Virus record (IMG/VR): IMGVR_UViG_2563366848_000003
Length of the DNA: 35,269 nucleotides
DNA from: a virus
Taxonomy: Duplodnaviria; Heunggongvirae; Uroviricota; Caudoviricetes
Reading direction: 5' to 3' (one strand)
In this document: positions 11,391 to 31,141 of the stretch, piece by piece
How positions within the stretch are numbered: position 1 is the first letter of the stretch
Layout: each line of letters opens with the position of its first letter
The notes under the pieces: generated by a model
Seen by the model: the letters and a program-made list of their open reading frames with translations, nothing else
What the model was told of the DNA's origin: nothing
Database searches by the model: none
Translations under genes and position numbers: made by a program

Positions 11391-11416
11391 TTAGCCAGGT
11401 AACACAGTGTTATGAC

Positions 11417-11443
11417 AGCCCGCCGGTTCAGGCGGGCTTTTTT
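11417..11443 (+). terminator. rho-independent terminator after lom
   Basis: AGCCCGCCggttcaGGCGGGCT followed by TTTTT. Confidence 0.6.
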
Positions 11444-11454
11444 GTGGGGGGAAT

Positions 11455-14349
11455 ATGGCAGTACGGATTTCAGGTGTACTGAAAGATGGCGCAGGTAAGC
11501 CGATACAAAACTGCACCATTCAGCTAAAGGCCAGGCGCAACAGCACCACGGTGGTGGTGAACACAGTGGCCTCAGAAAACCCGGATGAAGCCGGGCGTTA
11601 CACAATGGACGTCGAGTATGGTCAGTACAGCGTCAGTCTGTTGGTGGAGGGATTCCCGCCGTCACACGCCGGGATTATCACCGTATATGAGGACTCAAAG
11701 CCGGGCACACTGAATGATTTCCTCGGTGCAATGACGGAGGATGATGTCCGGCCAGAGGCACTGCGCCGTTTTGAACTGATGGTGGAAGAGGTGGCGCGTA
11801 ACGCGTCCGCAGTGGCACAGAACACGGCAGCCGCGAAGAAGTCAGCCGGCGATGCCGGCACATCTGCCCGTGAGGCGGCAACCCATGCGACTGATGCTGC
11901 AGGCTCAGCACGCGCAGCCAGCACGTCAGCCGGACAGGCCGCTTCGTCGGCTCAGTCAGCGTCTTCCAGCGCAGGAACGGCATCAGCAAAGGCCACTGAA
12001 GCATCAAAAAGTGCTGCCGCTGCAGAGTCCTCAAAAAGCGCGGCGGCCACCAGTGCCGCTGCGGCAAAAACGTCAGAAACGAATGCGGCAGCGTCACAAC
12101 AATCAGCAGCCACTTCAGCATCCACCGCAACCACGAAAGCGTCAGAAGCTGCCACCTCAGCCCGGGATGCGTCGGCTTCAAAAGAGGCGGCAAAATCATC
12201 AGAAACGAGCGCAGCCTCGAGCGCCAGCAGCGCAGCTTCCTCGGCAACGGCGACAGCAAATTCTGCGAAGGCGGCAAAAACGTCCGAGACGAACGCCAAG
12301 GCTTCTGAAACGGCAGCGGGACAGAGTGCCTCAGCTGCGGCAGGCTCAAAAACAGCGGCTGCGTCGTCTGCCAGTGCCGCGTCAACAAGTGCCGGGCAGG
12401 CCTCAGCCAGTGCCACCGCCGCCGGAAAATCGGCAGAAAGTGCTGCATCGTCCGCTTCAACAGCCACAACGAAGGCTGGCGAAGCCGCTGTACAGGCCAG
12501 CGCAGCAGCGAGGTCTGCTTCCGCAGCGAAGACATCCGAAACGAATGCGAAAGCGTCGGAAACCCGTGCAGAATCCTCAAAAACGGCAGCCGCATCGTCC
12601 GCCAGTTCGGCAGCGTCATCGGCATCATCTGCGTCTGCTTCAAAAGATGAGGCGACCAGACAGGCGTCAGCAGCGAAGGGCAGCGCCACGACGGCATCCA
12701 CGAAAGCAACAGAGGCGGCAGGCAGTGCGACGGCAGCATCTCAGAGCAAAACTGCTGCTGAATCCGCTGCGACCCGTGCGGAAGCTGCTGCTGATCGTGC
12801 TGAAGAGATTGCCGGTGCAGTTGCGATGGAAGACGCAAGCCTTACAACTAAAGGTGTTGTGAAACTTAGCAGTGCTGTTGATAGCACCAGTGAATCGCTG
12901 GCCGCAACGCCAAAAGCAGTTAAAGCAGCCAATGACAATGCGAATAGCAGGGTGCCATCTAACCGAAAAGTTAACGGAAAAGCACTGACTGCGGATATAA
13001 CATTAACGCCGAAAGATATTGGTACTTTAAATTCAGTAACGATGTCTTTCTCTGGCGGGGCTGGGTGGTTCAAACTGGCTACGGTTACCATGCCACAAGC
13101 GAGTTCCATCGTTTACATCGCATTGATTGGTGGCGCTGGTTACAACGTCGGTTCCCCACATCAGGCAGGCATTTCAGAACTGGTTCTACGAGCAGGCAAT
13201 GGAAACCCCAAAGGAATTACCGGGGCTTTGTGGAAGCGTACAGCCGTCGGATTAACGAATTTCGCCTGGATCAACACATCCGGCGATACATATGATATTT
13301 ACGTTGAGATTGGCAATTATGCGACTCGTGTAAATATCCATTGGGATTGTACTGCAAATGCGACAGTTTCTATTTATACATCGCCAACATATTCAGCGAG
13401 TAAGCCTTCCAGCGTTACCGATGGTGTTGTTTATACGATGTATAGCACACATCAGAAACCGACGCCGTTAGATATTGGAGCACTGCCAACAACCGGAGGA
13501 ACAGTTTCAGGTCCGTTGTCTGTTACAGGTGGATTAACTGGTTCATTGAATGGTAATGCAAGTACAGCCACGAAATTGCAGACGGCAAGATCTATCGGTG
13601 GAGTTGTTTTCGACGGTTCTGCAAATATTAACCTTCCAGGTGTAAACACTACGGGTAATCAGAACACCACTGGTAATGCTGCAACTGCCACAAAACTACA
13701 GACTGCACGGAATATCAACGGCGTTCCGTTTGACGGCACGAAGGATATTACGCTTACGCCTAAAGATCTGGATGCCTACAGCAAAAGCGAAGTACAGAGC
13801 GCACTGGCGGGCAAACAACCGCTGGACAATACGCTGACTAATTTGAGTGGAAAGGATGTAGCTGGTCTTCTCGCATACCTTGGTTTGGGCGAAACGATAA
13901 ATAAAGCCTCCGGAGCTATGCAGAAATCGGCTAATGGAGCTGATATTTCTGATGTATCAGCCTTCCGAAATGCGCTCCAGTTAGGGACCGCCGCAACACG
14001 AGATGTTGGAGCAGATAATGCCTCGAAGTTACTGGATTTAGACAGCTTCAGGTCAATGATGTCAGGGAATGGCTACATCTACATTCCATGCATTGCGACG
14101 ACAGGAAACCCGGTGAAACTTATGTTGCAGTGGGGAACGGTGGCAACACAAAAGGGAGCTGATGCTGGATATGCCTTACCATTTGCTTTTCCCTATGCAG
14201 GCTTATTTGCGACCGGAAACCGTGGAACATCTGGCTACAATGCCGCGATGAATGTGCGTATTGCCAGCAGAACGCATATCAGTATTCAGAACTGGTCGCC
14301 ATCCGGAGAGGGCACCGAAGATTGTTGTTTTATCGCGCTGGGGTATTAA
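11455..14349 (+). CDS. stf: side tail fibre protein Stf (extended, 964 aa)
   Basis: N-terminus MAVRISGVLKDGAGKPIQNCTIQLKARRNSTTVVVNTVASENPDEAGRY as in lambda Stf; ~300-aa Ala/Ser/Thr-rich region; two phage tail fibre repeat motifs (ATKLQTAR-x-I-x-GV-x-FDG); distinct C-terminal domain ending ...FIALGY. Confidence 0.9.
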   Translation: MAVRISGVLKDGAGKPIQNCTIQLKARRNSTTVVVNTVASENPDEAGRYTMDVEYGQYSVSLLVEGFPPSHAGIITVYEDSKPGTLNDFLGAMTEDDVRPEALRRFELMVEEVARNASAVAQNTAAAKKSAGDAGTSAREAATHATDAAGSARAASTSAGQAASSAQSASSSAGTASAKATEASKSAAAAESSKSAAATSAAAAKTSETNAAASQQSAATSASTATTKASEAATSARDASASKEAAKSSETSAASSASSAASSATATANSAKAAKTSETNAKASETAAGQSASAAAGSKTAAASSASAASTSAGQASASATAAGKSAESAASSASTATTKAGEAAVQASAAARSASAAKTSETNAKASETRAESSKTAAASSASSAASSASSASASKDEATRQASAAKGSATTASTKATEAAGSATAASQSKTAAESAATRAEAAADRAEEIAGAVAMEDASLTTKGVVKLSSAVDSTSESLAATPKAVKAANDNANSRVPSNRKVNGKALTADITLTPKDIGTLNSVTMSFSGGAGWFKLATVTMPQASSIVYIALIGGAGYNVGSPHQAGISELVLRAGNGNPKGITGALWKRTAVGLTNFAWINTSGDTYDIYVEIGNYATRVNIHWDCTANATVSIYTSPTYSASKPSSVTDGVVYTMYSTHQKPTPLDIGALPTTGGTVSGPLSVTGGLTGSLNGNASTATKLQTARSIGGVVFDGSANINLPGVNTTGNQNTTGNAATATKLQTARNINGVPFDGTKDITLTPKDLDAYSKSEVQSALAGKQPLDNTLTNLSGKDVAGLLAYLGLGETINKASGAMQKSANGADISDVSAFRNALQLGTAATRDVGADNASKLLDLDSFRSMMSGNGYIYIPCIATTGNPVKLMLQWGTVATQKGADAGYALPFAFPYAGLFATGNRGTSGYNAAMNVRIASRTHISIQNWSPSGEGTEDCCFIALGY
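11850..12800 (+). repeat. intragenic low-complexity Ala/Ser/Thr coding repeats within stf
   Basis: Reiterated peptide units (AAKTSETNAKASE, SAASSASSAASSA) and matching DNA motifs such as gcggcaaaaacgtc[ac]ga[ag]acgaa at ~12061 and ~12274; similar unit at ~12523. These drive the long shadow ORFs on both strands (11678-12838, 11852-12862, 11952-12701). Confidence 0.8.
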
Positions 14350-14351
14350 GA

Positions 14352-14762
14352 ATGAATAAATTTTATAAAGGCTCTTTCTATCCGAAAGCACTAAAAGAGG
14401 TATATATCAGCGCCGGTTCATGGCCTGAAAATGGCGTTGATGTTGATGATGAAACAATGGCAATTTACACAGGCGTAGCGCCACAAGGCAAAACGCTGGG
14501 GGCTGATAAAAATGGTAATCCTGCGTGGATTGATATCCCGCCACTCTCCGCTGAACAACAGATTATTCAGGCTGAACAGAAAAGAACGGTATTGCGTTCT
14601 ATGGCTGATAAGGAAATAGCCTGGAGACAGGATGCTTTTGATGCGGAAATCGCGACGGCAGAAGAAACCGCCGCGTTATCTGAATGGAAAAAATACCGGG
14701 TCTTGCTGATGCGCGTTGATACAGCAAAACCCGTATGGCCTGTCAATCCGCAGGATATTTAA
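14352..14762 (+). CDS. tfa: tail fibre assembly protein Tfa
   Basis: ATG at 14352 directly after the stf stop (MNKFYKGSFYPKALKEVY...); conserved Tfa C-terminal motif ETAALSEWKKYRVLLMRVDTAKPVWPVNP. The tabulated start at 14322 overlaps stf and is less likely. Confidence 0.85.
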   Translation: MNKFYKGSFYPKALKEVYISAGSWPENGVDVDDETMAIYTGVAPQGKTLGADKNGNPAWIDIPPLSAEQQIIQAEQKRTVLRSMADKEIAWRQDAFDAEIATAEETAALSEWKKYRVLLMRVDTAKPVWPVNPQDI

Positions 14763-14976
14763 CGGGGGCGTTGTAGGTGGTGACATATTCAAGCAGTTCT
14801 GTTGGATATGTCACCGTTGCTGCATCTCGCTCTACGTTAAATGTATCCGCTCCCCAGATAACACACTCCCTCAAAAATGCCTCCACCTCTGGCGAGACTT
14901 CAACCGCATCATCAGGTCGCTCTTGTTCAGAAACATAAAAACCAACGGTCGTTGGGCTGAAATACATATTCTCCAT
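14743..14976 (-). pseudogene. inverted alternative tail-fibre assembly gene tfa' (N-terminal 77 aa only)
   Basis: Minus-strand ORF MENMYFSPTTVGFYVSEQ... has a Tfa-type N-terminus (YFS...GFY) but lacks the conserved Tfa C-terminal domain; its 3' end overlaps tfa. Confidence 0.45.
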
Positions 14977-14978
14977 AT

Positions 14979-15452
14979 TTAGTATCCTATTGCTTCAAAA
15001 TGCAAAGTCGGAATTTCGCCGAGATTGGGTGTCGTATACGACACAGTGAATCGCGTTCTTGATACGTCAGTGCCAGAATCAGTATCGCGATGCGTTGCCA
15101 GTGATTTCCCAGCCATTGTTGCCTGGGTCGAAAAGCTGTAACTCGCTAGTGTTGCCAGCGTTGCTATTTGTGCATTTGGGAATTGTCTGGGGAAATTAAC
15201 CCTGTAGTAATGGGTGTAGTACAGCACTCCACCAAGAGTAATTGCGTTGAAATTACCAACAGGCGTCAGTGTCACAGTACCAACCTGTCGAATCATACCA
15301 TTTGGGAGAATATCCCAGGCAGTTTGTCCGTTTCGCGACATACCAAATGCGGACATGTCCGGGAGTTGATTATTACCGGTTCCGACATTACGTTTTGCCG
15401 CTTCTCCCAATTGAACGTTTATGAAAATGCAGAAATAGCGCGCAAATGGCAT
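14979..15452 (-). pseudogene. inverted alternative tail-fibre C-terminal segment (Sv'-like), no start of its own
   Basis: Minus-strand frame ending ...PTLHFEAIGY, paralleling the stf C-terminus ...CCFIALGY and sharing a D-x-SAF motif. Position and orientation (stf-tfa / tfa'-Sv' / pin) match Mu G, P1 C and e14 P invertible segments. Confidence 0.5.
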
Positions 15453-15481
15453 CGTTCCTGTTTTTGTCAGGAGGAGCTATC

Positions 15482-15610
15482 ATGCTTATTGGCTATGTTC
15501 GCGTATCAACAAATGACCAGAACACAGATCTACAACGTAATGCGCTGAACTGTGCAGGATGCGAGCTGATTTTTGAAGACAAGATAAGCGGTACAAAGTC
15601 CGAAACCTAG
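15482..15610 (+). pseudogene. pin: truncated serine DNA invertase (Pin/Gin/Hin family), first 42 codons only
   Basis: MLIGYVRVSTNDQNTDLQRNALNCAGCELIFEDKISGTKSET* matches the N-terminus of Pin/Gin including the catalytic Ser in VRVSTNDQ; the frame stops at TAG 15608-15610 and similarity is lost thereafter. Confidence 0.8.
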
Positions 15611-15657
15611 GGCTGACACTGCTGTTCTTGTTGCAAATTAAAGGATTTAATAGTGAG

Positions 15658-15685
15658 TAGCGGCCTTACTAATGTAAGGCCGCTA
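15658..15685. terminator. perfect 12-bp-stem hairpin at the pin'/cargo junction
   Basis: TAGCGGCCTTACtaatGTAAGGCCGCTA lies 21 nt downstream of the minus-strand DUF262 gene stop and 48 nt after the pin' stop. Confidence 0.4.
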
Positions 15686-15705
15686 TAATCATTTTATTAA
15701 TTGCA

Positions 15706-17595
15706 TTAATCGTGTTTTGGCCATACTTTCAATGCAATTTCCCCCAACTTTTTACCCCGCTCCAGGATTTCATCCTCATCCCATTTATCCTTAACTATAA
15801 GTGGAATGTTCAGTCGTAGATTGGTGTGGACGATGAGAGCATCACGTTTTTTCAGAAATACAGCATTCTGAACAGAACGGTTTACGCTAAGGTTAAGCAA
15901 AGTTAGATTTCCCAACGTAGCTATCGCTTGTTGCCGTTTCCTTACCAGTAGCTGTTCTGGGGTAAGATCGGTTCCAGACAGAACAATTTGGTTCAATACC
16001 GTAGCATCTGAATTTGTCACCATATGACCATTTTCGAGAGGCCAACAGGAATACCAACTTTGAGGCATAAGATGATCGATATCGAGGTTAGAAAGATTTG
16101 GAACATCAGGCTTCTCTGTCTTCACTTGGCGACAAAGTTCTCTTTCAAGTTCCGTTAACATTGAGCGCATTTTCGGTGCGTCGAGCCTGCCAGGATAAAG
16201 TGGAGCATTGATGCAAGCGTTGAGAAATTCTGAGTCCCCAGGCCAACGTGAGGCTTCGCCATTTAAGCTATTGAGGATATTACGTAACTCAACACTGGAA
16301 ATTTCTGTTTTAGACAAGTGCCGCAATACATTCATAAATACATTGTTGTAATTCTTTGGCGTCAGGCCACATACGGCTCTTCGTACTACGTAGGAGACAA
16401 GATCATTATACATGGCTGCTTTCTCATCATCGGCGATGTTAGCTATCGAAATGAACAAAGCAAGCGGATAAAGTGTCGTCACATCATAGGCTGCGATGCG
16501 ATGTCCAAAGTGTGAGATGGGGGTTGTGCCAAAACCACCAACCAATTCTTTATATTGTGATGCATATTGTTTGAGGCGCTTTACTTGCAGATCTGCTCGT
16601 TGTGAAGGCAAGTCCTTACTTACATAATCACGATACTCATTGTAAAGACGAGACAGATCGATTTCACGTTGCCTTTCTGATTGCAATGTTGCATGCACTA
16701 GCCACTCCATGCGTGGTTTATTAATACGACCACGACGTTGTCTTTCTGACCAGTACGTATCTTCAAAGATCTTCCACTCATTCTCATATAATTCAACAGC
16801 ATTAATATTTTCATGTTCAGCGCACATAAAAATATAATTGCGAATAAGATCTGTGGCATGAAGTTCCGCACCTCTGCCATTTAATGTTTCAAAAATTATT
16901 TGAGCGTCATCTTCAGCCTCGAGAAATATGCTTACTAGTTTCAGATCCGTCAAGACAGCCTCAATTAATGCTACAGCATTTTCTCGTGGTGAGTGATTTT
17001 CTATTTTAATCCACTTTATAAAGGCTTCAGTAAAAAAACATAATGCTTCTAGTGATGGCGGGTGATTAAAATGCTTACGCAACGTACCATGCTGCGTGAA
17101 ACTATCAGAGAATACATTCCGGATATCGTCAATATTTTCAACATTAAAACTTTGAATAAAATGAGTTTGATCCCGAAAAGTTGGCCACAGTTTGAAGCGC
17201 TCTACTTCTTTATTTCGCATTGTGTCTTCGTTTGAGTTTTTCAGGCAAGACGAAATGAGAGGCTCTAAGTTGGAAAGATCTGTCGCACGTAATGCTAATC
17301 GGATGGATGCCAGAACATATTGAAGAGTGGTCAATCGTTGCTGACCATCAATAATATGTATGGAATCTACACCGAATAATCCTTTTTTTGGTTGAGGTTC
17401 CAGTACCACTGCACCAAGGAAATGGGGAGTTGGTTTTGTACCCGAGAGCCGGGATTGTGCTTTCTCTAGGATATCCTCCAGTAGAGCTGACCATTGGTTT
17501 CGCTGAGTCCATACATAGGCACGTTGATAGAATGGAACACAGTATTGTCGGCGGTCTTGAAAAAGTTGTTGGACAGTTAGCGTCTCGGATTTCAT
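15706..17595 (-). CDS. DUF262 (ParB-like NTPase, DGQQR) + DUF1524 (His-Me finger nuclease) protein; GmrSD-family putative type IV restriction endonuclease
   Basis: N-terminal motifs PFYQRAYVWT and IIDGQQRLTTL; C-terminal LDIDHLMPQS...N; about 630 aa. Start chosen at the ATG (17595) preceded by AGG, giving MKSETLTVQQLF...; an upstream in-frame ATG at 17655 has no SD. AT-rich relative to the flanking phage genes. Confidence 0.8.
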   Translation of the reverse strand: MKSETLTVQQLFQDRRQYCVPFYQRAYVWTQRNQWSALLEDILEKAQSRLSGTKPTPHFLGAVVLEPQPKKGLFGVDSIHIIDGQQRLTTLQYVLASIRLALRATDLSNLEPLISSCLKNSNEDTMRNKEVERFKLWPTFRDQTHFIQSFNVENIDDIRNVFSDSFTQHGTLRKHFNHPPSLEALCFFTEAFIKWIKIENHSPRENAVALIEAVLTDLKLVSIFLEAEDDAQIIFETLNGRGAELHATDLIRNYIFMCAEHENINAVELYENEWKIFEDTYWSERQRRGRINKPRMEWLVHATLQSERQREIDLSRLYNEYRDYVSKDLPSQRADLQVKRLKQYASQYKELVGGFGTTPISHFGHRIAAYDVTTLYPLALFISIANIADDEKAAMYNDLVSYVVRRAVCGLTPKNYNNVFMNVLRHLSKTEISSVELRNILNSLNGEASRWPGDSEFLNACINAPLYPGRLDAPKMRSMLTELERELCRQVKTEKPDVPNLSNLDIDHLMPQSWYSCWPLENGHMVTNSDATVLNQIVLSGTDLTPEQLLVRKRQQAIATLGNLTLLNLSVNRSVQNAVFLKKRDALIVHTNLRLNIPLIVKDKWDEDEILERGKKLGEIALKVWPKHD

Positions 17596-18065
17596 GGTAT
17601 ACCTGTAAGCGACATTGTACAAAAGTGAGGAGTTAATCTGATTTAGAACAATCATTTTATGTTGCTATGATACAACGTATTTGTTACCGGTTAAGTAAAA
17701 AACGCGTCTGAACGCTGACGTTTTAGGGCTTTACTAGTTATTCTTTCTTATCTCTTCATCATCCCATCGGCATCCTGTCGAGGTTGTTGACTTGTTGTTA
17801 TTTATTTTGTTTAGGCGCTGTTTAATTATTATTGATGGGACTGGTGGTGAGAGGTGATTGAAACCGCAGACAGGTCGTATGCAAGACGTGCTGCGGTTGG
17901 CTGATGCACTTTTGATAGTGCAAGTATTGAATGATTGCCAGTCACAGCGGATTGTACTTAGGTAATATGACGGTTCAAGGCGTTTAAACTGAAACCATCC
18001 ACATATCAGTCTCTTCAAACATTTCCTAAATCGTTCGGCTTATCTGTTCTTTCTCACGTTTGCTG

Positions 18066-18460
18066 ACGTCAGTGCTGATTGCCGGCAGTGTCATCATCGG
18101 TTTTACACGATACCCTTTGCGTTGAACGAGTCGTACTACTGTAACAGCGCGTCGGTGAAGCTGCTCATCCCGACACAGGACAGTCGGGATATCATTGCAG
18201 TAGCAACGGGGAGTCTGGATGCAATATGGAAAGACGGACACCGATATCAGAAAGCCGGGGTAATGCTGGGGGACTTCTTCAGTCAGAGCATGCCCTAACC
18301 TATTCGACGATAACGCGCTGGGTCCTGGGAGCGAAAAGTTAATGAGCGTGCTGGAGCACCTCAATGCAAAAGACGGGAAGGAAACACTCTGTTTCGCTGG
18401 GCAGGGCATTCAGCAGCAGTGGCAGATGAAACGCGAGATATTTTCGCACCGGTATACAAC
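18066..18460 (+). pseudogene. umuC: 3' remnant of umuC-like Y-family polymerase gene, frameshifted
   Basis: Translation reads ...RFYTIPFALNESYYCNSASVKLLIPTQDSRDIIAVATGSLDAIWKDGHRYQKAGVMLGDFFSQ then, after a frame break, ...LMSVLEHLNAKDGKETLCFAGQGIQQQWQMKRE..., matching the C-terminal ~120 aa of UmuC. No N-terminal portion or umuD is present. Confidence 0.6.
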
Positions 18461-18525
18461 TAGATTTTCTGGCATTTTAGGTGGTTAGATAGATATTTAT
18501 GCTCTACGCAATGAATATGAGAGAA

Positions 18526-19191
18526 TTAATTGTCTAAGCTGGTATAATATGAATAAAGGCTTTTTCCCATTATTTTCTCTAAATCCTTTTTGTTTCTAAA
18601 GAAAATGTTTGAGATATGCTGATGATAATACTTTATAATGATTCTCATCAGCGCCGATACTACTTCATGAAGTTTTTTCACCATTTTATGCTGTGTTGAA
18701 TTACAATCTCCCTCCATAAGTGATATAAATGTTGATGTAACATTTAGGTTCGCTTGGGGGGAGGAGTGAACATAATAACAGGCGTTGATATAGACATTAT
18801 GTAAATAAGACCAGCCTTCATCGACTTGTTGGGCTTTTAAGAAGTCAAAGTCTCTACGACGTACAGTTTGGTCAAAATCCCCACCATTGTAGTTCTTATT
18901 GAGGCTTATTCTGGCCACATGCTCCACCATTGAGCGGAAGTTCAGTTGGAGATACCGTTCTCTTTTTTTTATAATGGCAATTAAGGAGTTTAAGGTATCA
19001 TATATAAAACCTTTTATATAAGAAGAGTGATTTAGATTAGGATTGTGACTTAAAATTGTATTACAAAGACTTATTTGCCTAAATATTGATACTGATTTGT
19101 TTATTTCATCAGTGGTTCTGAGGTGCTTTTGCACCTCCGCTCTAAAATAATTTACATCTCTTCCAATGTTGAAGGGATCCTGCGTGAGCAT
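18526..19191 (-). CDS. hypothetical protein (221 aa), third gene of the ParA-like operon
   Basis: AT-rich ORF; its start overlaps the stop of the upstream 132-aa gene (translational coupling). No family recognised by eye. Confidence 0.6.
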   Translation of the reverse strand: MLTQDPFNIGRDVNYFRAEVQKHLRTTDEINKSVSIFRQISLCNTILSHNPNLNHSSYIKGFIYDTLNSLIAIIKKRERYLQLNFRSMVEHVARISLNKNYNGGDFDQTVRRRDFDFLKAQQVDEGWSYLHNVYINACYYVHSSPQANLNVTSTFISLMEGDCNSTQHKMVKKLHEVVSALMRIIIKYYHQHISNIFFRNKKDLEKIMGKSLYSYYTSLDN

Positions 19192-19589
19192 TATTCTTCT
19201 TCCTTTTTATTTGCATTAATCCAAATATTTAAATTCCTTATAGCATGCTTGCTTTTAGATGTGGATTTTTGGCTTGTTTTATTTGCATCATTAAAAATAA
19301 TGTCTAATGTGTTAATGTTGTTTAAGAAATGCGTATAAGCCATCTTTATGTCATTCTCACTTAATTCATTAATATGTCTGCAAATTTTAGCGCACATCAA
19401 AGTTCTTGACCGTACAGCATAATTCAAAAAAGATATTTTGAAGGTTTTGTTAATAAATTTACTAACATCAAAATTTGATCTAAAAACCTCTTTTGAAAGA
19501 ATCAACATAATTACCAAGCCTAAGAAGTTTTCTTTGGTCATGGGCATATTATTAGCTTTATTGAGCGCTTTAATTAATTGTTTATTCAT
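19191..19589 (-). CDS. hypothetical small protein (132 aa), second gene of the ParA-like operon
   Basis: Start overlaps the ParA-like gene 3' end by 8 nt; Lys/Asn-rich; no family recognised. Could be a small centromere-binding or adaptor protein. Confidence 0.5.
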   Translation of the reverse strand: MNKQLIKALNKANNMPMTKENFLGLVIMLILSKEVFRSNFDVSKFINKTFKISFLNYAVRSRTLMCAKICRHINELSENDIKMAYTHFLNNINTLDIIFNDANKTSQKSTSKSKHAIRNLNIWINANKKEEE

Positions 19590-20427
19590 TTGTGTTACCT
19601 TCCAAGTGAGCCACTCTGTTAATAAATTCGTTACAGATCTTTTCTATATCTTGGCGTGACTTTGAATAACAAGAAGGAATATTTCCTTGATAACCTACCA
19701 TTAAATCACGCACGTAGGTTAATTGATTTTCAAAGAAATAAAAATTTGTAAATTGAGTATGGTTTTCGAATTGTTCTTTAATTTCCCTTGTTTTATTGGT
19801 CATTTCAGCATCAGTGTTTGTATAAATGTAACCGACTTGCTTGATTTCTTTCTCATGATGTGTGCGCATATTTCTTATAACGCTATTTAAACTGCTTGCT
19901 CCAAGCACCGAGTAGTGATCAATTTTAACCGGAGTAAGATAATAATCAGAAGCAAGGAGTGCGGTATCTGTAAATAATGAGATTGTTGGGGGGCTATCGA
20001 TAAAGATATAGTCGTAACTTTCTTTTAAGTCATTTTCGGTGATGAATTTACGCAACATTTTTATTCTAATACCCTCTTGGTTAGTATCAAAGATAATGTT
20101 TATATCACCTAAGATAATATCAAGATTGTCTGAAACTTTAGTAATGACCTGTTCTGGTGTCACTTTCTTTTCATCTTCCATTAATGAATTTGGAAGCTCA
20201 AAAATCTTTCGAATGGTTTGATTATTAGGGCGAAGGGCAGTCATATATTCTTCTACTCGATCATAATGCCCCATTAAGGACTGAGTGGCATTAAATTGAG
20301 GATCAATATCGATAACTAGAACCTTGCGCCCCATATGGTTGGCTAAAAACTCAGCAATCCCAACGCATAAAGTTGTTTTACCAACCCCACCTTTCATATT
20401 GATAAAACTAATTACTGGTGCAGTCAT
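19582..20427 (-). CDS. ParA/MinD-family P-loop ATPase (deviant Walker A)
   Basis: N-terminal FINMKGGVGKTTLCVGIAEFLA (KGGxGKT deviant Walker A), VIDIDPQ and downstream DSPP motifs typical of ParA/Soj; SD AAGGA 6-8 nt upstream of the ATG at 20427. Confidence 0.8.
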   Translation of the reverse strand: MTAPVISFINMKGGVGKTTLCVGIAEFLANHMGRKVLVIDIDPQFNATQSLMGHYDRVEEYMTALRPNNQTIRKIFELPNSLMEDEKKVTPEQVITKVSDNLDIILGDINIIFDTNQEGIRIKMLRKFITENDLKESYDYIFIDSPPTISLFTDTALLASDYYLTPVKIDHYSVLGASSLNSVIRNMRTHHEKEIKQVGYIYTNTDAEMTNKTREIKEQFENHTQFTNFYFFENQLTYVRDLMVGYQGNIPSCYSKSRQDIEKICNEFINRVAHLEGNTNE

Positions 20428-20450
20428 TTTTTCATCCTTAATTATGTAGT

Positions 20451-20465
20451 GTGAAATAGATTCAC
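20451..20465. promoter_or_regulatory. candidate operator palindrome upstream of the ParA-like gene
   Basis: GTGAA-ataga-TTCAC inverted repeat 24-38 nt upstream of the ParA-like start codon. Confidence 0.25.
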
Positions 20466-21175
20466 TATGCTGAAAGCATTTTTTAGCTTAATTTTTATAC
20501 TGCGCGTTGACTTATCACCCTATCATATATGATTTTTAGGTGTTGCATAGACTGGTTTTATATCAGGGGCTTAGGTTGTATGTGGCGTCACAGAATCACT
20601 AATCATTGAACTTTGTACATGTAACAGTCCGGTTAAATAATATATAATGGGTTGTTAAGTTGGCTCTCTGATTCCTGATGCCCCAAGGACGCGCGTCATT
20701 GCGTGCCAGATTAACTTTTCGTCGGGCACAGTGCTATCGGCAATTATTTCCTCAGCCTCTTTCCCGCATAGGTCTTGGCGCATCCATTTTCTTGCTATGA
20801 AATCTCCAGCCGGTCAGACTGAAAGTATAGAAGAGAATATGCGAATCGCTGTTCCGGTGTTTCTGGGAGAGCTTATGTCGGAGTAATTCCCCGGTAATTG
20901 AATCTCTTTTGCTCGCTCATAACAGACATTCACTACAGTTATGGTAGAAAGTATGTATGCTGATTGGGGAAAGTGTGAAAGAAAAGAAGACTGCTGCGCT
21001 GTTTGTCGTCACGTTTATCTTCATTGGCTATGCAAGTCATAATACAAGGTGGGACAAAACTGAGACACATAAGGCCTCACAATGGCTTGCAAGGCTTTAC
21101 ATGTTTTGATGTGGTGGGACGTGTGAGCACAGTGTTGATGGGGTAATACTTTGAATTAGAAGCGGATTCTTATAA

Positions 21176-21220
21176 TTCGTAATGCGAAGGTCGTAGGTTC
21201 GACTCCTATTATCGGCACCA
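21176..21220 (+). other. 45-bp 3' fragment of tRNA-Thr(CGU) (thrW-like): attachment-site remnant
   Basis: attcgtaatgcgaaggtcgtaggttcgactcctattatcggcacca contains the anticodon loop (CGT), T-arm GGTTCGACTCC and the 3' acceptor with CCA, but the preceding 30 nt do not form the D-arm or 5' acceptor, so it is not a complete tRNA gene. Confidence 0.75.
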
Positions 21221-21383
21221 TCTCAACTTCCTCAAACGTCCATATTTGTCCATAAATACCCTGATTTATAAAGACTTTTCTGCTTTTAAGTCCATCTTTG
21301 TCCGTAACCATCCAGTAGAATCCGATACGGAATGTGTATAGGATTGTGTATATGTTTCTGTTCTGTCCTGGATTCCTATACAC

Positions 21384-22553: not shown

Positions 22554-24053
22554 ATGCAAACTTCGAGAGCTATTAATAAAAATGTCGGGGGAAATGACTC
22601 TGAAAAATATCTTTCTAAGCTGTGTGAAAGAACTTTTTTAAGCTTGTGGAGTTATCCAAATGTTTATACTGATGAAGGAAAAAAAACGGCGTCGGGAGAT
22701 GGGAAGGAACTCTGTGATCTTCTAGTTGTATTTGAAAATCATGTCATAATATTTTCCGATAAAGATATTTCGTTTAAGGATTCAGGGGATTTAAAAGTTG
22801 ATTGGGGGCGTTGGGTTAAAAGGGCTGTTATTAAATCCGCAGTTCAACTTTATGGTGCCGAGTCATCATTAAAAGAGAGACCCGGTAGGTTATTTCTTGA
22901 TGCTAAGTGTAATGTCCCTTTTCCAATTAAAGTGCCAAAGTGTGACGAAATTATCGTTCACCGAATTGCTGTTGCAAAGAATGCATCAAAAAAATTCCAA
23001 GAGCATTCTGGCGGTTCTGGGAGTTTGATTATATGTCCGCGCATAGTGGGAAACCAACATTTTGATACTCCGTTTATGATCGGTCAGCCCATTGCTGACA
23101 AGCCTTATGTGCATGTTTTTGATGATATTGCTTTAGATATTATACTTTCTGAACTCGATACAATTGCTGATTTTATAGATTATCTTAGTAAGAAGGAAGA
23201 ATTTATTGCTTCAGGAGGACTAAACTCGGCAGCGGGAGAGGAAGAACTTTTAGCATGGTACTATATAAATGCTAAAGATGGGCGTGAGCCGGGGTTTTAT
23301 ATAGAGAAAGGAGTATCAGCTTTGATTGTTGAGGGGGCCTATGAATCTCTTAAAAACCTTCCTCAGTTTATTAGAGGGAAAGAACTAAATTCTAATTCTT
23401 ATTTTTGGGATGCCTGTATAGAAAATTTTGCGAAACATATGCTTAGTGGGACAATATTGTCCGAAGGGGATTTTTCATTTGATGAGATGACTCGTGGTCT
23501 AAGAATTATGGCATCCGAGACGAGATTTTCAAGGCGTATACTATCAAATGCAATAATTGAAAAAGTCACCTCCATCCCTCATGGGCAAAGAGGTGTTAGA
23601 GTTTTGGTCTCTCCCAGTAACAGCGATAATGGGTATGTTTGGCTAGTGGTTCCGGTGCCAGAATGTTGCACATCATATGATGACTATAGAAAATATCGTA
23701 AAGATACTCTCTCTGTTTACTGTGCTTCAGCAAAGCTACTTTTCCCGGATATGAAATATATAGTTGGAGTTGCCACAGAACCGATGGGGGGGAATGGAGG
23801 GGAAGATATGGTGTTTATTGATTCAACTCAGTGGACAGAGGATGACTACGAAAGAGCTCGAAAAGATAGAGATGAATTTAAAGCTTTACTTCCGGATAAT
23901 ATTAAAAGAACTGATGATCACGATTATCAATTCCCTATTCTTCCTGGAGACTATCCTGAAAAAGAAACTTTAAGGGTTGAAAAGAATAGTAAGGCTAGAA
24001 TAAAACGAATTAAAAAGGCGCAAAAAAAAGCCCGTAGAAATAACAGAAAATGA
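22554..24053 (+). CDS. hypothetical protein (499 aa), cargo at the integrase-proximal position; possible nuclease-like N-terminal region, basic C-terminal tail
   Basis: ATG immediately follows the int stop (TAAATG) with SD AGGGGA; AT-rich. N-terminal segment ELCDLLVVFENHVIIFSDKD is loosely reminiscent of a PD-(D/E)xK core (unverified); C-terminus KNSKARIKRIKKAQKKARRNNRK is highly basic. Confidence 0.7.
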   Translation: MQTSRAINKNVGGNDSEKYLSKLCERTFLSLWSYPNVYTDEGKKTASGDGKELCDLLVVFENHVIIFSDKDISFKDSGDLKVDWGRWVKRAVIKSAVQLYGAESSLKERPGRLFLDAKCNVPFPIKVPKCDEIIVHRIAVAKNASKKFQEHSGGSGSLIICPRIVGNQHFDTPFMIGQPIADKPYVHVFDDIALDIILSELDTIADFIDYLSKKEEFIASGGLNSAAGEEELLAWYYINAKDGREPGFYIEKGVSALIVEGAYESLKNLPQFIRGKELNSNSYFWDACIENFAKHMLSGTILSEGDFSFDEMTRGLRIMASETRFSRRILSNAIIEKVTSIPHGQRGVRVLVSPSNSDNGYVWLVVPVPECCTSYDDYRKYRKDTLSVYCASAKLLFPDMKYIVGVATEPMGGNGGEDMVFIDSTQWTEDDYERARKDRDEFKALLPDNIKRTDDHDYQFPILPGDYPEKETLRVEKNSKARIKRIKKAQKKARRNNRK

Positions 24054-24091
24054 GTTATGATCAAATCAAGGGCCTTTTTAAGGCCTTTGAA

Positions 24092-24874
24092 TCAATCTTT
24101 GGCGTGTGATTTAAATTTAAATGATATTTTTCTCTTGGTATTTCTTAAGGATTTTGAAATTCGCCATTTTAAATTGAATAAAGTATCCAATAGCTTTTCT
24201 GAGTTCTGCTTATTTAGTAGTCTGTGTTCTTGTCTTATCATAAGGAATATTTCAAGGTATGGGTCGTCAATTTTTTCTTCCAGTTCTTCACAAGAGTAGC
24301 TGTTGACACGTTCAAGAGCGATATATTCCATCCTTATCTCATTTGGTTCCCTTAAACTTGTTTTTTCCCATTCTAATCTAATTGGCTTACTAAAAAGGGA
24401 TATGTTCTCCTTAATATGTGCCATAACACGTCTAAAACGATTGTTAAATTCTTCATTATCAGTATGCATAACTGGTGATTGATTTCCTAATAATGTTGAA
24501 CTTTTTTCTCTTTGGAATTTGTAATATTCCTCTGATACTTTTTTGCTAAAGCTGGCTTGATCTGATTTATTCTTGAAGCTTATATGTTCATAACTATCCG
24601 GACCATATATTTGTTCCATCCAGTGCAACTGACTAAATTGATTGACGGCTTGTTCTAAATCTTTATCTTCTGATGTGTATGTTTTCTGTGATTTTATTTT
24701 GTAGTCGAAAAGTAGTAAGTCGCAAACATCGAAGTAGATTTTGTCATAAGTTCTTAGACGTTCTATTTTTCTATTGTATTTTGACTGGCGAATGGTATTT
24801 AAAAATCCTAGGCAGGATATGATAAAACCACCTATAGAAATATATAAAGAAATTGAAGTGTTATCCTGCACCAA
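24092..24874 (-). CDS. hypothetical membrane-anchored protein (260 aa) with an N-terminal transmembrane helix
   Basis: N-terminus MVQDNTSISLYISIGGFIISCLGFLNTI is a predicted TM helix followed by a charged domain of unknown function. Convergent with the 499-aa gene (38-bp gap); AT-rich. Confidence 0.65.
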   Translation of the reverse strand: MVQDNTSISLYISIGGFIISCLGFLNTIRQSKYNRKIERLRTYDKIYFDVCDLLLFDYKIKSQKTYTSEDKDLEQAVNQFSQLHWMEQIYGPDSYEHISFKNKSDQASFSKKVSEEYYKFQREKSSTLLGNQSPVMHTDNEEFNNRFRRVMAHIKENISLFSKPIRLEWEKTSLREPNEIRMEYIALERVNSYSCEELEEKIDDPYLEIFLMIRQEHRLLNKQNSEKLLDTLFNLKWRISKSLRNTKRKISFKFKSHAKD

Positions 24875-25646: not shown

Positions 25647-25922
25647 TCAGACAGGAATTTGCTGGCGGTTTGAGAGCCTGGAGGCTGCGCCATATTTTCC
25701 GAGTGTGTGAGCTGACTTCTCTGATTGCTCGCTTGCGGTTTCATCCTTGGTCTCAACCTTGTTAGGCCGGGCAATAATCGTGTCCACGCTCTCCAGTGCG
25801 GTGAATGTGCATGAGCACTCCAGGTTTTTGCACTGATAGTAAGTCCGCTTTATGGATGGGGCCTCATAAAAGCTTGAACGGGCATGTGAGATTGCGCCGC
25901 ACTCAGGACACTGTAAAGCCAT
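25647..25922 (-). CDS. Ogr/Delta-family zinc-finger late transcription activator
   Basis: MALQCPECGAISHARSSFYEAPSIKRTYYQCKNLECSCTFTALESV has the Ogr/Delta C-x2-C-x22-C-x4-C arrangement; start at 25922 with SD GGAGGA 6 nt upstream (the tabulated ORF begins 5 codons earlier). Confidence 0.85.
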   Translation of the reverse strand: MALQCPECGAISHARSSFYEAPSIKRTYYQCKNLECSCTFTALESVDTIIARPNKVETKDETASEQSEKSAHTLGKYGAASRLSNRQQIPV

Positions 25923-26475
25923 AGGCTTCCTCCGCAAGTTTCAGGCGCTTGAGCCTGTCCTGAAAAGTTTTATGCTTCGCCGGAGTGAATCTCTTCGAGG
26001 CATCCATGCGCATTGATGCATCAGGCGATAAACCTGATTCATCAAGGATTTCACGGCAGGACTCAAGCAGTTCTGGAGCATTGAGTTCCGAATAATGCGC
26101 CAGCGCCAAACGCAGCACACGTGCAGCAACATCAAGGCCAAAGGGGCCGTTCAGATAAGGTGCCAGCGCTGAGGTCAGCGCCTTGCCCGAATTTGCCATA
26201 AATTCACTCAAGGCATTATCAACACAGGCATCCACGACACTTCTCTGCGCGTAGAGACCATCATTTGCCGCACAGCTGATCTGCCATTCAAGCACTTCTA
26301 GCTTTTCTCTGAGAGTTTCAACCTGCCAGGCATAATTGTAAGGCTTATCTGCAGACAGCAACAATGCCTGCAGCCGTAGTTGGGCTGTACTTTGCTCGTT
26401 GCGAAGTGATAGCCAGCTCTGAGAAGCATCCCGGTAGTGATGCAGCGCTTCCTTAGGGGTAATTGTGGTGTCCAT
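25903..26475 (-). CDS. psu: Psu-like protein (polarity suppression / capsid decoration homologue)
   Basis: 190 aa, the same length as P4 Psu; recalled similarity in the C-terminal half (ALTSALAP..., KRFTPAKHKTF vs P4 ALAAALAP..., EKFTPAQNMIF). Confidence 0.65.
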   Translation of the reverse strand: MDTTITPKEALHHYRDASQSWLSLRNEQSTAQLRLQALLLSADKPYNYAWQVETLREKLEVLEWQISCAANDGLYAQRSVVDACVDNALSEFMANSGKALTSALAPYLNGPFGLDVAARVLRLALAHYSELNAPELLESCREILDESGLSPDASMRMDASKRFTPAKHKTFQDRLKRLKLAEEAYGFTVS

Positions 26476-26569
26476 CAGCTTTGCTGCGTATTACCGTGAA
26501 GGAGATCGGTGAGTAACATCGATGGAGATCGGTTCGTGTCACTTTCACAGAACCGTTTTTAAATTACCT

Positions 26570-27319
26570 TCACTGATCTCCTTCGGTCAACGGAGATTGT
26601 ATTTTCCGCATTGATTCTCCTTTAAGTTCGATCTTGATACTGCCATGAACCAGTCGATCTAGGATGGCATCCGCATGTGTGGAGTCTCCGATCATTTTGT
26701 ACCAGTTTTCCACCGGCAACTGGCTCACTACGATGATTGAGCCTCGTTGGTACATCAGATCCACTATTTCCAGCAGGTCGCTACGCTGTTCTGATGAGAG
26801 AGGTTCCAGCCCCCAGTCATCCAGAAGCAGCAGATCGCTATTATTCAGCCTGGTCAAAAGTTTGCTGTATCTTCCATCAGCATGCCCCTGATAGCACTGT
26901 TCCATCAGCGCTTTAAGGCGATAATAGTAGACCTTGTATCCCTGTCGGCAGGCATTATGACCAAGTGCACATGCCAGGAACGTTTTACCGCTGCCGGTGG
27001 CCCCGGTCAGTAAAATATTTTGTTTCAGGGTTAACCAGTTTCCCTGACTGAGTGAACGGATGAGGGCCCTGTCCAGCCCTCTATTGTTACGATAATCCAG
27101 CTTTGATAACTCAGCATTAAGTCTGAACCGTGCATGTTTGATCAGACGCTCTGCCTTCCTGTTTTCACGGCAGGTTAGTTCTTCTGCTGTCAGTAATGAC
27201 AGGCGTTCTTCGAAGCCCAGCTCCTGGTATGTGCCCGGCTGAGCAAGTTGCTTTTTAAGCGCATCACGGAAGCCGGTGAGTTTAAGTGCGGTCAGTTGTT
27301 CGTAAAGATGATTCATCAT
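26570..27319 (-). CDS. istB: IS21-family transposition helper ATPase IstB
   Basis: 249 aa with Walker A GATGSGKT and Walker B LLLLDDWG, IstB/DnaC-like. Confidence 0.93.
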   Translation of the reverse strand: MMNHLYEQLTALKLTGFRDALKKQLAQPGTYQELGFEERLSLLTAEELTCRENRKAERLIKHARFRLNAELSKLDYRNNRGLDRALIRSLSQGNWLTLKQNILLTGATGSGKTFLACALGHNACRQGYKVYYYRLKALMEQCYQGHADGRYSKLLTRLNNSDLLLLDDWGLEPLSSEQRSDLLEIVDLMYQRGSIIVVSQLPVENWYKMIGDSTHADAILDRLVHGSIKIELKGESMRKIQSPLTEGDQ

Positions 27320-27330
27320 TGGATCCCGTA

Positions 27331-28872
27331 TCAGTGGTAATACTCACTGCCGCGTACGTTTTCGTGTTCCATCGTGGATAACAGATCTGGTTTTGGATCC
27401 TGAACAGGTTGTTTATCCAGACCTTTTTCCAGGATCGATTTAATACCTGACAGACGCCATACCTTTGTTTTCAGAGCTCTTGCACATGCTGCATTAAGTC
27501 TGGCTTTACTGTATTTTTTATGAAGGTTCAGGAGTCCAAGGCAGAAGCGATAGCTTTGTTCCGGATGTGGACGAGAGTTCAGTATATGAAGCACATAACT
27601 ATGAGTTTCACTGCCTATGTGCCCCGCCCATTCCAGAAGACGCTCTGGCGTCCAGGTGGCATGCTGTCGATGAGCTTCAGGCATGTGCTCGTTGCGGGTA
27701 CTGTAGCCATAAGTACGCTTGCGCGGGTGCACAGCAACCTCCTGCCCCTGATTGAAGAGTCTTACCAGTTCTCCGGAGATCCATGCTTCCAGTTGCTGGC
27801 CTAACAGCGAACATGGAACCGAGTAGTAATGTTTGTCGATTTCCACGTGGTAATCGGCATGAACTCTGACTTTCTTCACCAGGGTGTAACTGTAACTGGC
27901 TTCAGGAAGAGGCTTCAGTGCGGGTTTATCAAGCTGGATGAAGAGTTCTGCACGTGAATAACCCAACTTCTGCATTATTTTGTTATTCAGTCTTTCCAGC
28001 AACTCCCGAATGCGCTGATTAAGCGATGCAAGGCTGTAGAAGATCTCATGCCTGATTCGGGCCATGATCCAGCGTTCAACAACCTGAACGCCAACTTCAG
28101 CTTTGGCTTTATCTTTCGGTTTACGTGGCCGCGCAGGCAAAACTGCGACATTATAATGCTCAAGCATCTGCTGGTAGGTAGGGTTAACGTCAGGATCATA
28201 CTTACATGCCCTGGATGTGGCGCTTTTCAGATTGTCCGGAACAACAAGTTCAGGAACGCCACCCAACCACTGGAAGCAGCGAACATGACTCATCACCCAG
28301 TCTTCAAGCTGCTGAGACCAGGTGGCCTCTGCCCATGTGTAACTTGATGCCCCGAGAACAGCTACGATGACCTGAGCAGTTCTTATTTCTCCGGTCTCAG
28401 GGTCGGTAACGCCAACGGTAGGTCCACAGTAATCAACGAAAAGTTTTTCGCCAGCTTTATGTACCTGACGCATTGATGGTGAAGTGGTTTTGAGCCATTC
28501 ACGGTACATCCGGCAGTAATGGTTATAGCTGTAAAAACCGCCTGGATTACGCTCACAGTATTCTTCCCAGAGTAGCTGCAGCGTCACGCATTTATTACGC
28601 AGTTCCCGGTGTACTGTAGCCCAGTCAGGCAGAGAGTGCTTCTTCATCTTAACCTGGGTCTGAAGGAACGCATGTTTTAGTTTTGTATCATCCCATCCTG
28701 TAGGTAAGGGCCACTGCTTTATGCCAAGTTGAGCCGCCCGATTAGCATATCTGGATACAACGGAAGGGGAGATTGCAAGACTACGACCAATTTGTCGATG
28801 GCTGAGTCCAACACCGTATTTAAGCCTAAGAATTTCTTTAAGTTTTCTCATAGAAATTGGAACTGTTGGCAT
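27331..28872 (-). CDS. istA: IS21-family transposase IstA
   Basis: 513 aa with an N-terminal HTH (LKYGVGLSHRQIGRSLAISPSVVSRY) and a DDE core; located 11 nt upstream of istB. Confidence 0.93.
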   Translation of the reverse strand: MPTVPISMRKLKEILRLKYGVGLSHRQIGRSLAISPSVVSRYANRAAQLGIKQWPLPTGWDDTKLKHAFLQTQVKMKKHSLPDWATVHRELRNKCVTLQLLWEEYCERNPGGFYSYNHYCRMYREWLKTTSPSMRQVHKAGEKLFVDYCGPTVGVTDPETGEIRTAQVIVAVLGASSYTWAEATWSQQLEDWVMSHVRCFQWLGGVPELVVPDNLKSATSRACKYDPDVNPTYQQMLEHYNVAVLPARPRKPKDKAKAEVGVQVVERWIMARIRHEIFYSLASLNQRIRELLERLNNKIMQKLGYSRAELFIQLDKPALKPLPEASYSYTLVKKVRVHADYHVEIDKHYYSVPCSLLGQQLEAWISGELVRLFNQGQEVAVHPRKRTYGYSTRNEHMPEAHRQHATWTPERLLEWAGHIGSETHSYVLHILNSRPHPEQSYRFCLGLLNLHKKYSKARLNAACARALKTKVWRLSGIKSILEKGLDKQPVQDPKPDLLSTMEHENVRGSEYYH

Positions 28873-29050
28873 AGGTATCCTTTACCGGAATGGCAAAAGA
28901 TACAGATCAACACACCTGTGAAGTTCCAATAACATTGATGGAGATCACTGAATAACAAAATGAGTCAAAAGTGATCTCCATCGATGTTATTCAGCGATCT
29001 GTTCAAATGTTATTACCCGATCTCGATGGAAGTTATTGAGTGATCTCCTT

Positions 29051-29812
29051 TCATGAAAATACGCAGCTTTGCCCCTTCTTCGCTTTTTCACGCTGTTTTT
29101 GTATGCGGATTTGCGCCGCCGGGCTGGGGGCGTTCTGAATATCCTGATAGGCACTATTATCAGCAAGTACACCAATTTTATTCAGGAAAGGGTCACTCTG
29201 CAGAGAGGCATTCTGTTTCAACGCCGGATTAGTGATTGAAGAAGTAATGAAATCCCGCAATAGCGTTTCAGGATCATTCACAGAATGGACAACACCAATT
29301 ACAGAGCTGGCACTTCTCCCTTTTGTCACTTTGAGAAGGCTTAAAAGCTGGATAAGGGTTTGACCATGCTGCTTCATAAAATCATGCCAAAGCTGGTTAA
29401 CATGGGTTTCGATAAGATTATCATGTGCCTGAATGTAACCACGGGCCAGTTCCGCCGTTTTCCATGGGAGATACTCATTCTCTCCGGCATGGGCCGCAAG
29501 CAGATCATCAAACTCGTCGAGTGTTTCACGCCCCAGGGCAATCTCAGCCCTTAGTTTTTTCATTTTCGGCGTTACCTGTCCCTGGTTTTCATGAAACATC
29601 TGACGCCATTCTTCATTTTGCGCCTTTGCCTCCGTTTCCGTTTCTACACGGCGTTTACGGATTGTTGCGAGCATCGCAGCAGCATCAATTTGTTTGCGAC
29701 GGGCTTCCGTCCAGGCTGATTTGGCAGCATTCACTTTTTCAAGCGCCTGTTGTGTCGCAGCAGGGATAGAAATATCAGCAGTCGATTTATTGCTCTGGTC
29801 TGGGATAGTCAT
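29051..29812 (-). CDS. sid: Sid-like capsid size determination protein, C-terminus altered by the IS21 insertion
   Basis: N-terminus MTIPDQSNKSTADISIPAATQQALEKVNAAKSAW resembles P4 Sid; about 250 aa, coiled-coil rich. The last 4 codons and stop (CVFS*) are read from the IS end. Confidence 0.6.
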   Translation of the reverse strand: MTIPDQSNKSTADISIPAATQQALEKVNAAKSAWTEARRKQIDAAAMLATIRKRRVETETEAKAQNEEWRQMFHENQGQVTPKMKKLRAEIALGRETLDEFDDLLAAHAGENEYLPWKTAELARGYIQAHDNLIETHVNQLWHDFMKQHGQTLIQLLSLLKVTKGRSASSVIGVVHSVNDPETLLRDFITSSITNPALKQNASLQSDPFLNKIGVLADNSAYQDIQNAPSPAAQIRIQKQREKAKKGQSCVFS

Positions 29813-30049
29813 GTCAGCACCTTGTTGTTTGTGTTGGTGTCAATTGTGCTGTGATGCATACAAAGCCGCCATTGAACGCCATTGTGCGAGCGACAAGACA
29901 AAGACCTCTTTTGGCTAGCCAAGAAAGGCCTCGTTTAACTGAGTCAGTTTCAGACTTACATTAACTGTTCACTACTATTCACTTAGGTAAAAAAATAGAT
30001 AATACAGTAGGTTATAAGGTGAAGGGTTGGCATGGCAGTATTCATCGAC

Positions 30050-30067
30050 TGTTCATAACTGTTCACA
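30050..30067. promoter_or_regulatory. TGT-N12-ACA motif (Ogr/Delta-type activator site) upstream of sid
   Basis: TGTtcataactgttcACA, ~240 bp upstream of the sid start in an AT-rich divergent intergenic region that also holds repeated ctgttca / ctattcac motifs (29943-29968, 30046-30070, 30131-30170). Confidence 0.3.
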
Positions 30068-30729
30068 TGGGAATAAAATTATTTATGGTATTTTTTCATA
30101 ATGGATGGTTTTTTATTCCTCGTAGCTATTTGTTTTTTGCTCCTCACCACTATTCACCCTTATTCAGTAGTATTCGACAGGCGCTGAAATAGACTGCCTG
30201 TTATTGCCGGGAAATAACATTTTCGCCTCTGACCATGGTGTTGCATTTCATACTGATTTTTATAAAACTAGAACTGTCCGGTTCTTTATGGATTCATGCG
30301 GATATATTTTAAGATTTAAGATGAAATTATTTAATATCAAGGTTTTTATGCAGACCCAATGTTTATAAGTTGGATGCGATTCAAAAATATGCCCGGAAAT
30401 TGGGGCCTGCAATGCAAGGCCTCGTGTAGAAGTTGTACTGCCTTGCTGTATTGGCGGTGGGGTCAGCACTATCAGGTGCAATGACCCATGGGGTAGTTAA
30501 CTCATTGATGAATGGTAGTTCCTATTAATGCTCCTATATTTATAGCCCGCAGGCATAGTATTTATTATGTTGTTTTATATGGTTTGATCGGGTTTTAAGT
30601 TTCATGAAATCAATATGTGACGCTAAATAAATAATGCGTGCGCAGGCGGTTTATATACACATAATAAGGAACTACCTGAACCCGGATAAATTCATCAGGT
30701 CTGTTGTGGAAATTAAAGAGGGTAGATAA

Positions 30730-30990
30730 ATGCGTAATATTTCTGTGTCTGCGCCAGCTCCGGCTGCGCCATTATTTCCTGTACCGAACCAGCATGAACG
30801 ATTTTTACGCCTGCCTGAGGTGATGCACTTATGCGGGTTGTCCCGTTCGACCATTTACGACCTGATCAGTCGCGATGCGTTTCCGAAGCAGATCCCGCTT
30901 GGCGGTAAAAATGTTGCCTGGGCACAGTCTGAGGTCAGCGCATGGATGGCGGACCGTATCAGCGCCCGTGGGCGGGGATGTGATGCATGA
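30730..30990 (+). CDS. alpA: AlpA/Vis-family DNA-binding regulator (phage-island excisionase-like)
   Basis: [53 protein letters not shown] is the AlpA helix-turn-helix signature; SD AGAGGG 8 nt upstream of the ATG at 30730. Confidence 0.8.
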
Positions 30991-31117: not shown

Positions 31118-31141
31118 AGACGCGCCAGGCGTCTTTTTTTT
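31118..31141 (+). terminator. rho-independent terminator after alpA
   Basis: AGACGCgccagGCGTCT followed by TTTTTTTT. Confidence 0.55.

Follow-up and report, generated by a model that had tools for sequence, protein, structure and literature searches.

The tRNA gene thrW is a classic integration hotspot, and the 46-bp att core that is used there was published decades ago. Integrases of the SfII/P22 type act on a 46-bp core in the phage and on the 3' portion of thrW, which is identical to it. Recombination restores a complete gene on the int side of the prophage (attL) and leaves, at the opposite end (attR) and following the P arm, 46 bp that lack the 5' part of the gene. The published 46-base att core is common to SfI, SfII, SfV, SfX and P22 (PMC3636060). 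Integration of two phages in tandem at this site has been made experimentally: in double lysogens of S. flexneri carrying SfX and SfI, serial integration at thrW left a copy of the att core between the elements, and the later arrival inserted on the attL side, the site of the intact tRNA (PMC3306764). A P4-like prophage, Sp2, has been described in E. coli O157:H7 Sakai (PMC2669165).

Here we analyzed a stretch of 35,269 nucleotides (IMG/VR record IMGVR_UViG_2563366848_000003; hereafter the window), in which a fragment of thrW lies between two mobile elements (Table 1). Positions 11384-32553 showed 0 mismatches over 21,170 nt against GCA_000352725.1 (scaffold KB733130.1:3094635-3115804), which is probably the source genome. 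The letters at 21175-21220, ATTCGTAATGCGAAGGTCGTAGGTTCGACTCCTATTATCGGCACCA, correspond to nt 31-76 of E. coli K-12 thrW, tRNA-Thr(CGU), and thus comprise 46 nt from the anticodon loop to CCA. An earlier note on this DNA had described the 3' 45 nt of a tRNA-Thr(CGU) gene at 21176-21220; the tRNA identity was right, and the start had been placed one base too late. The same note had proposed aligning the block to thrW, which gave 100% identity extending to 21221: the 47-nt block 21175-21221 matched K-12 thrW nt 31-76 plus the next base at 47 of 47 positions, and the result was the same against the attR copy of the K-12 prophage CP4-6. The 5' 30 nt of thrW are missing, and the DNA before 21175 ends in ...gcggattcttata, compared with ...gtagagcagcgc in the gene. 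A complete tRNA-Thr cloverleaf is absent at the fragment, which lacks the 5' strand of the acceptor stem and the D arm, and the fragment does not qualify as a functional gene.

ARAGORN called no tRNA gene in the whole window, and Rfam returned no tRNA-like match in 20850-21400 at E≤1; the identity of the fragment is therefore based on direct comparison with thrW. The last 25 nt of the fragment occurred once in the window and in 0 of 100 shuffles, and the match to thrW is not due to chance. No second long copy of the thrW end was found in the window when up to 3 mismatches were allowed. A shorter repeat of this end, at the right border of the second element, did not appear in the mismatch search because of a 1-nt deletion and was picked up by reading the sequence.

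Table 1 Features of the window, from left to right, with overlapping features listed separately.
Feature	Position	Strand	Basis or remark
Lambdoid prophage right arm	1..20912	+	Pfam hits; PADLOC mREase_IV; 92-99.8% to WCHEC005784 thrW prophage
GmrSD type IV restriction enzyme (prophage cargo)	15706-17655	-	Full-length PADLOC mREase_IV match
ParA-like ATPase gene with 132-aa and 221-aa unknowns (three-gene set, prophage cargo)	18526-20427	-	
Phage-side arm (P arm) of lambdoid att site	20913..21174	+	Phage-genome search
44-codon ORF, hydrophobic N-terminus, common to phage 21	20975-21109	+	Phage 21: putative membrane protein
17-bp hairpin and CUCAGUUUUGU on int-sense strand	21061..21106	-	Terminator scan
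att core	21175..21220	+	Read as attR core of lambdoid prophage and attL core of P4-like satellite
Integrase-proximal (P') arm and int upstream region of satellite	21221..21383	+	WCHEC005784 homology stops at 21226; solo-satellite homology from 21175
P4-type tyrosine integrase, 389 aa	21384..22553	+	Arm-DNA-bind_3, Phage_int_M, Phage_integrase
Satellite cargo	22554..24874		499-aa ORF 22554-24053 (+); 260-aa ORF 24092-24874 (-)
Ogr/Delta-like gene and psu	25647..26475	-	NCBIfam PRK09678; Pfam Psu; Ogr_Delta gene call
IS21-family insertion (istA, istB)	26485..29065	-	Pfam IstB_IS21, rve
Rest of P4-like core: sid-like (-), alpA, ash, C4/isrK RNAs, DUF5375, alpha-type primase-helicase	29051..34432		Pfam, Rfam
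isrK and C4 antisense RNA matches	31062-31295	+	Rfam; inside ash ORF region
Alpha-type primase-helicase	32042-34432		
Satellite distal arm (P arm), 284 nt	34433..34716	+	Between primase stop and att repeat
Satellite attR core, TCCTATTATCG-CACCA	34717..34732	+	
Chromosomal flank: native DNA downstream of thrW and yagP homologue	34733..35269	-	

Lambdoid tail and cargo genes occupy the DNA left of the fragment, and to the right, the P4-type integrase starts 164 nt beyond CCA; gene content on both sides thus bears out a position between the end of a lambdoid prophage and a P4-type integrase. The fragment is the exact string of the published core (PMC3636060), and the attP cores of SfII and phi458 match it at 100%. 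When phage genomes were searched, 21050-21221 further proved to share 97% identity with the attP region of SfII, SfV, SfI and SfIV, with the 125 nt left of the core (21050-21174) homologous to the P arm of these phages. The DNA upstream of the fragment had been taken for prophage sequence in place of the 5' half of the tRNA, and the 97% identity of these 125 nt to the P arm of the SfII group agrees with that reading. On the minus strand of SfII, the order is xis, int, attP core, putative terminator and gtrA. The fragment and its left neighbor are therefore P arm plus core of an SfII/P22-type att site, as in a prophage attR. The outer part of the arm (20913-21109) was 91% identical to phage 21, and the entire 262-nt block 20913-21174 also precedes the fragment in O157:H7 TR01 and TOE3, where the DNA further upstream is unrelated. 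Judged by its exact 46-bp core and matching P arm, the fragment appears to be the attR of a thrW-specific lambdoid prophage of the SfII/P22 type, which is the role that the identity block had been given in the earlier note.

The prophage itself differs from the SfII group, despite the shared att site. Its right arm encodes, according to Pfam, a tape measure protein, L/K/I/J, Lom, a tail fiber with its assembly protein, an inverted tail-fiber segment and cargo. Unlike the SfII group, it is thus a siphovirus of the lambda type whose tail genes include J, Lom and Stf, and the genes beside its att site are restriction and ParA-like cargo, in contrast to the gtrABC O-antigen genes found there in the SfII group. 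The tail-fiber segment 13880-15216 was inverted in comparison with WCHEC005784, a complete E. coli genome whose copy is 99.7% identical. Since the adjacent invertase is represented only by a 42-aa Resolvase fragment, the orientation of this segment is probably frozen.

WCHEC005784 also provided a view of the far end of such a prophage. Positions 15399-21226 of the window were 99.8% identical to this genome and the tail region 92-96%; the homology ended at 21226, 6 nt past CCA, from where a different integrase island followed. The far end of the WCHEC005784 prophage, ~48 kb away, carries proB, proA, an intact tRNA-Thr and an integrase. This integrase shares 99% identity with SfII Int, and its stop codon is separated from the tRNA by 14 nt, as in the SfII group, where the int stop codon and the core are similarly spaced. 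In O157:H7 TR01, the order is proA, thrW, a broken int, cI/cro/cII, tail-fiber genes, an IS remnant, the 262-nt block, the fragment and a P4-like element. The arrangement predicted for the left of the prophage, an intact thrW beside a lambdoid int, was therefore present in the nearest available genomes. By extension, the source genome would likewise have thrW and an SfII-type int at the left prophage end, which lies outside the window, ~25 kb before its first position.

The second element is a P4-like satellite. Its integrase is oriented like the tRNA and begins just 3' of the tRNA end; the identical protein occurs in 158 blocks of the public collection. The int-to-delta/psu region of P4-like satellites is the usual place of anti-phage systems, and here it holds two cargo ORFs of 499 and 260 aa, neither of which had a match in Pfam, NCBIfam or PADLOC. 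Both ORFs, together with int, also occurred at 99% identity on a second P4-like backbone (L019 and L023). The P4 core set is complete, comprising psu, delta, a sid-like gene, alpA and the alpha primase, with psu split from the sid-like gene by the IS21 element. The insertion lies exactly where the stop of the sid-like gene overlaps the start of psu, is flanked by a 7-9 bp target duplication (CAGCTTTGC) and is missing from otherwise 99.98%-identical copies of the satellite; with it in place, psu and delta are probably no longer coupled to the late promoter. The isrK and C4 matches presumably mark the P4 CI-type immunity RNA locus.

Next to the distal arm of the satellite, which shows no similarity to 20913-21174, the 16-nt repeat 34717-34732 matched the last 17 nt of thrW at all 16 bases, with one G missing. 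The same one-G core was present in the genomes of the window, PSS-10 and O157 TR01, in each behind a different satellite arm (coordinates in the other genomes: L005 5170-5185 and L014 31489-31504). This recurrence suggests that the one-G core is probably the attP core of the satellite itself, which would confine strand exchange to GCACCAT. The P4-type integrase would accordingly be predicted to use just the last ~17 nt of thrW; such a restriction would explain why the integrase-proximal arm of the satellite begins right after CCA. Beyond the repeat, the flank 34733-35269 was 99.6% identical to K-12 at 297.2-297.8 kb, contained a fragment of the Pfam domain LysR_substrate and is annotated as yagP/paoD in E. 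coli genomes. The window ends exactly at the yagP start codon.

We then compared the satellite with copies that stand alone. In three other genomes (L018, L021 and L022), the satellite follows a complete thrW at 99.9-99.98% identity (1-4 mismatches in 11.4 kb), lacks the IS21 element, and is homologous to the window from exactly 21175 onward. These copies represent the phage-free state and show that 21175-21220 is also the attL core of the P4-like satellite at thrW. With the P arm on its left and the left end of the satellite on its right, the fragment would serve as lambdoid attR and satellite attL at once. The prophage accordingly ends at 21220, and the satellite extends from 21175/21221 to 34732; such base-level boundaries are useful for annotation and prophage typing.

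Taken together, 21175-21220 is very probably an att core between two mobile elements at the E. coli proA-thrW...yagP locus. The layout that we propose would run from proA through an intact thrW, an SfII/P22-type int, a lambdoid prophage of ~48 kb, the P arm and the 46-bp core to the P4-like satellite of ~13.5 kb, the 16-nt core and yagP, and the prophage and the satellite are each predicted to be still able to excise alone. Tandem integration at thrW, the central proposal of the earlier note, has thus stood up: core, P arm, satellite repeat and flank can be read in the window, and the full layout exists in a near-identical relative.

The array resembles several described occupants of the locus and differs from each. 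One counterpart is the pair Sp1 and Sp2 (CP-933H/I) of O157:H7, with the same succession of proA, thrW, int, lambdoid element, P arm, 46-bp fragment and P4-like element and a junction region that is 96% identical; we take the two elements of TR01 to be Sp1 and Sp2. In O157, however, the lambdoid element is degraded to ~12 kb, has a broken int and carries an IS next to the arm, and the satellite has an integrase only ~86-89% identical, other cargo and a right flank that is not yagP. The att site agrees with those of SfI, SfII, SfV, SfX, SfIV and P22 in its 46-bp core and in the 97% identity of the P arm over 125 nt. The SfX and SfI double lysogens also have serially integrated elements, but both are phages with the same type of integrase and the same 46-bp core, whereas in the window one partner is a satellite whose integrase differs and whose core measures 16-17 nt. 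The cryptic prophage CP4-6 of K-12 occupies the same thrW-to-yagP locus, and the same 47-nt repeat marks its right border; unlike the array described here, it consists of one decayed island of 34 kb whose distal end carries intF, and neither a P4-like core nor lambdoid tail genes are annotated in it. Given the known hotspot and a textbook composite att junction, the novelty is low; this is known biology, without a new principle.

To estimate frequency, 5,426 complete E. coli genomes were searched with short junction probes, and a genome was counted if the match covered at least 80% of the probe. An intact thrW followed by this satellite arm was present in 127 genomes, the phage arm with the fragment and this satellite arm (the design of the window) in 375 (~7%), including O157:H7, and the phage arm with the fragment and the native flank in 583, all of which are rough counts, as the probes represent one type of satellite P' arm only and the numbers are inflated by clonal O157 genomes. 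The tandem arrangement is routine in E. coli, and arrays of at least two elements are usual at thrW. Further combinations were seen in single genomes: in L021 (20779-21170) the same satellite was followed by a CbtA-toxin (CP4-6-like) island, in L022 (20763-21170) by a second P4-type integrase island, and in RM14723 (L024 16001-16174) a different P4-like element was followed by an SfII-type int remnant.

Which of the two elements arrived first was then considered. We favor a history in which the satellite integrated first and the phage second, into the sole complete 46-bp site. The order that is observed would be forced by this history, because just 16 nt of the 46-bp core remain in the satellite attR; a phage arriving second, needing the 46-bp core, could enter only at the intact thrW. 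A satellite arriving second would have more than one site to choose from. The alternative, which we consider less probable though a serious contender, is that the lambdoid phage entered native thrW first and that the satellite later integrated into the phage attR copy, consisting of the 46-bp fragment and native flank. This history would produce an identical final sequence: both the last 17 nt and the native downstream flank are available at a lambdoid attR, and the 583 genomes with phage arm and native flank indicate that such targets are common. Moreover, integration with the attR of a resident prophage serving as attB has been described for Sp10 and Rac (PMC2669165). Against phage-first arrival, in addition to the forced order, stands the array in RM14723, which reads thrW, P4-like element, one-G core and SfII-type int remnant, the reverse of the window; there, a P4-like element that arrived after an SfII-type prophage sits at the intact thrW. 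Furthermore, this exact satellite was alone at an intact thrW in five of six places among the matches listed. The counts of single and tandem elements and the reverse array in RM14723 thus lend a modest preference to the satellite as the first arrival. Cores and flanks held no informative polymorphism that tells the two orders apart, and since both histories end in the same sequence, satellite-first arrival is favored short of proof.

Two other explanations of the fragment can be put aside as highly improbable. The first is that thrW was truncated by deletion, IS activity or illegitimate recombination, without site-specific integration; the locus does contain insertions and deletions (an IS remnant directly before the block in O157, the IS21 element in the satellite, and, in PSS-10, the joining of a 34-nt stub to a truncated primase), but the 5' edge of the fragment falls exactly on the published core boundary, is preceded by a matching phage attP arm and recurs in hundreds of genomes as well as in free phage genomes. 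The second, that the 262-bp block represents the right terminus of an older P4-like element and the array consists of two tandem satellites with no phage attR, draws on the 100% match of the first 34 nt of the block beside a P4-family primase pseudogene in PSS-10; we rejected it, as these 34 nt adjoin a primase without its N-terminus and therefore mark a deletion joint, the post-primase arm of the window's own satellite is unrelated to the block, and the block lies beside int in the free lambdoid phages SfII, SfV, phage 21 and phi458.

Finally, we examined the P arm of the lambdoid attR, which contains a small ORF on one strand and a hairpin on the other. The 44-codon ORF may be expressed, and it had no match in Pfam or NCBIfam. 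In Cronobacter phage ENT47670, the 3' half of the ORF is not kept as protein, with many replacements and loss of the stop, and the pairing of the opposite-strand hairpin is kept; on these grounds, we rejected the ORF as the conserved feature. The hairpin folded with z = -2.95 on the - strand vs. -1.39 on the + strand. In its consensus fold, 2 of the 17 pairs are compensatory, both in a 79%-identical Cronobacter phage copy, so that the covariation comes from one diverged sequence. The depositors of SfII annotated a putative rho-independent terminator at this place. A U-rich run follows the hairpin, which lies just beyond attP on the int-sense strand, a layout that we take to be that of lambda tI/sib, and the hairpin is probably a terminator that follows int across attP.

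The hairpin belongs to a 75-nt module (21051-21125) that is 96-100% identical between sites whose att cores differ in specificity. The adjoining core is that of thrW for the window and SfII, argU for DLP12, a tRNA with the annotation Pro for phage Turner, and icd for phage 21, whose copy contains only the first 59 nt of the module. By analogy with lambda, we tentatively raise the idea that the module might be a tI/sib-like element that makes int expression depend on whether the phage is integrated or excised, throughout the whole SfII/P22/DLP12/21 integrase group, although we hold this to be somewhat unlikely. If it were true, the module would, in the lysogen, also protect the cargo genes next to it against transcription that arrives from the neighboring element.
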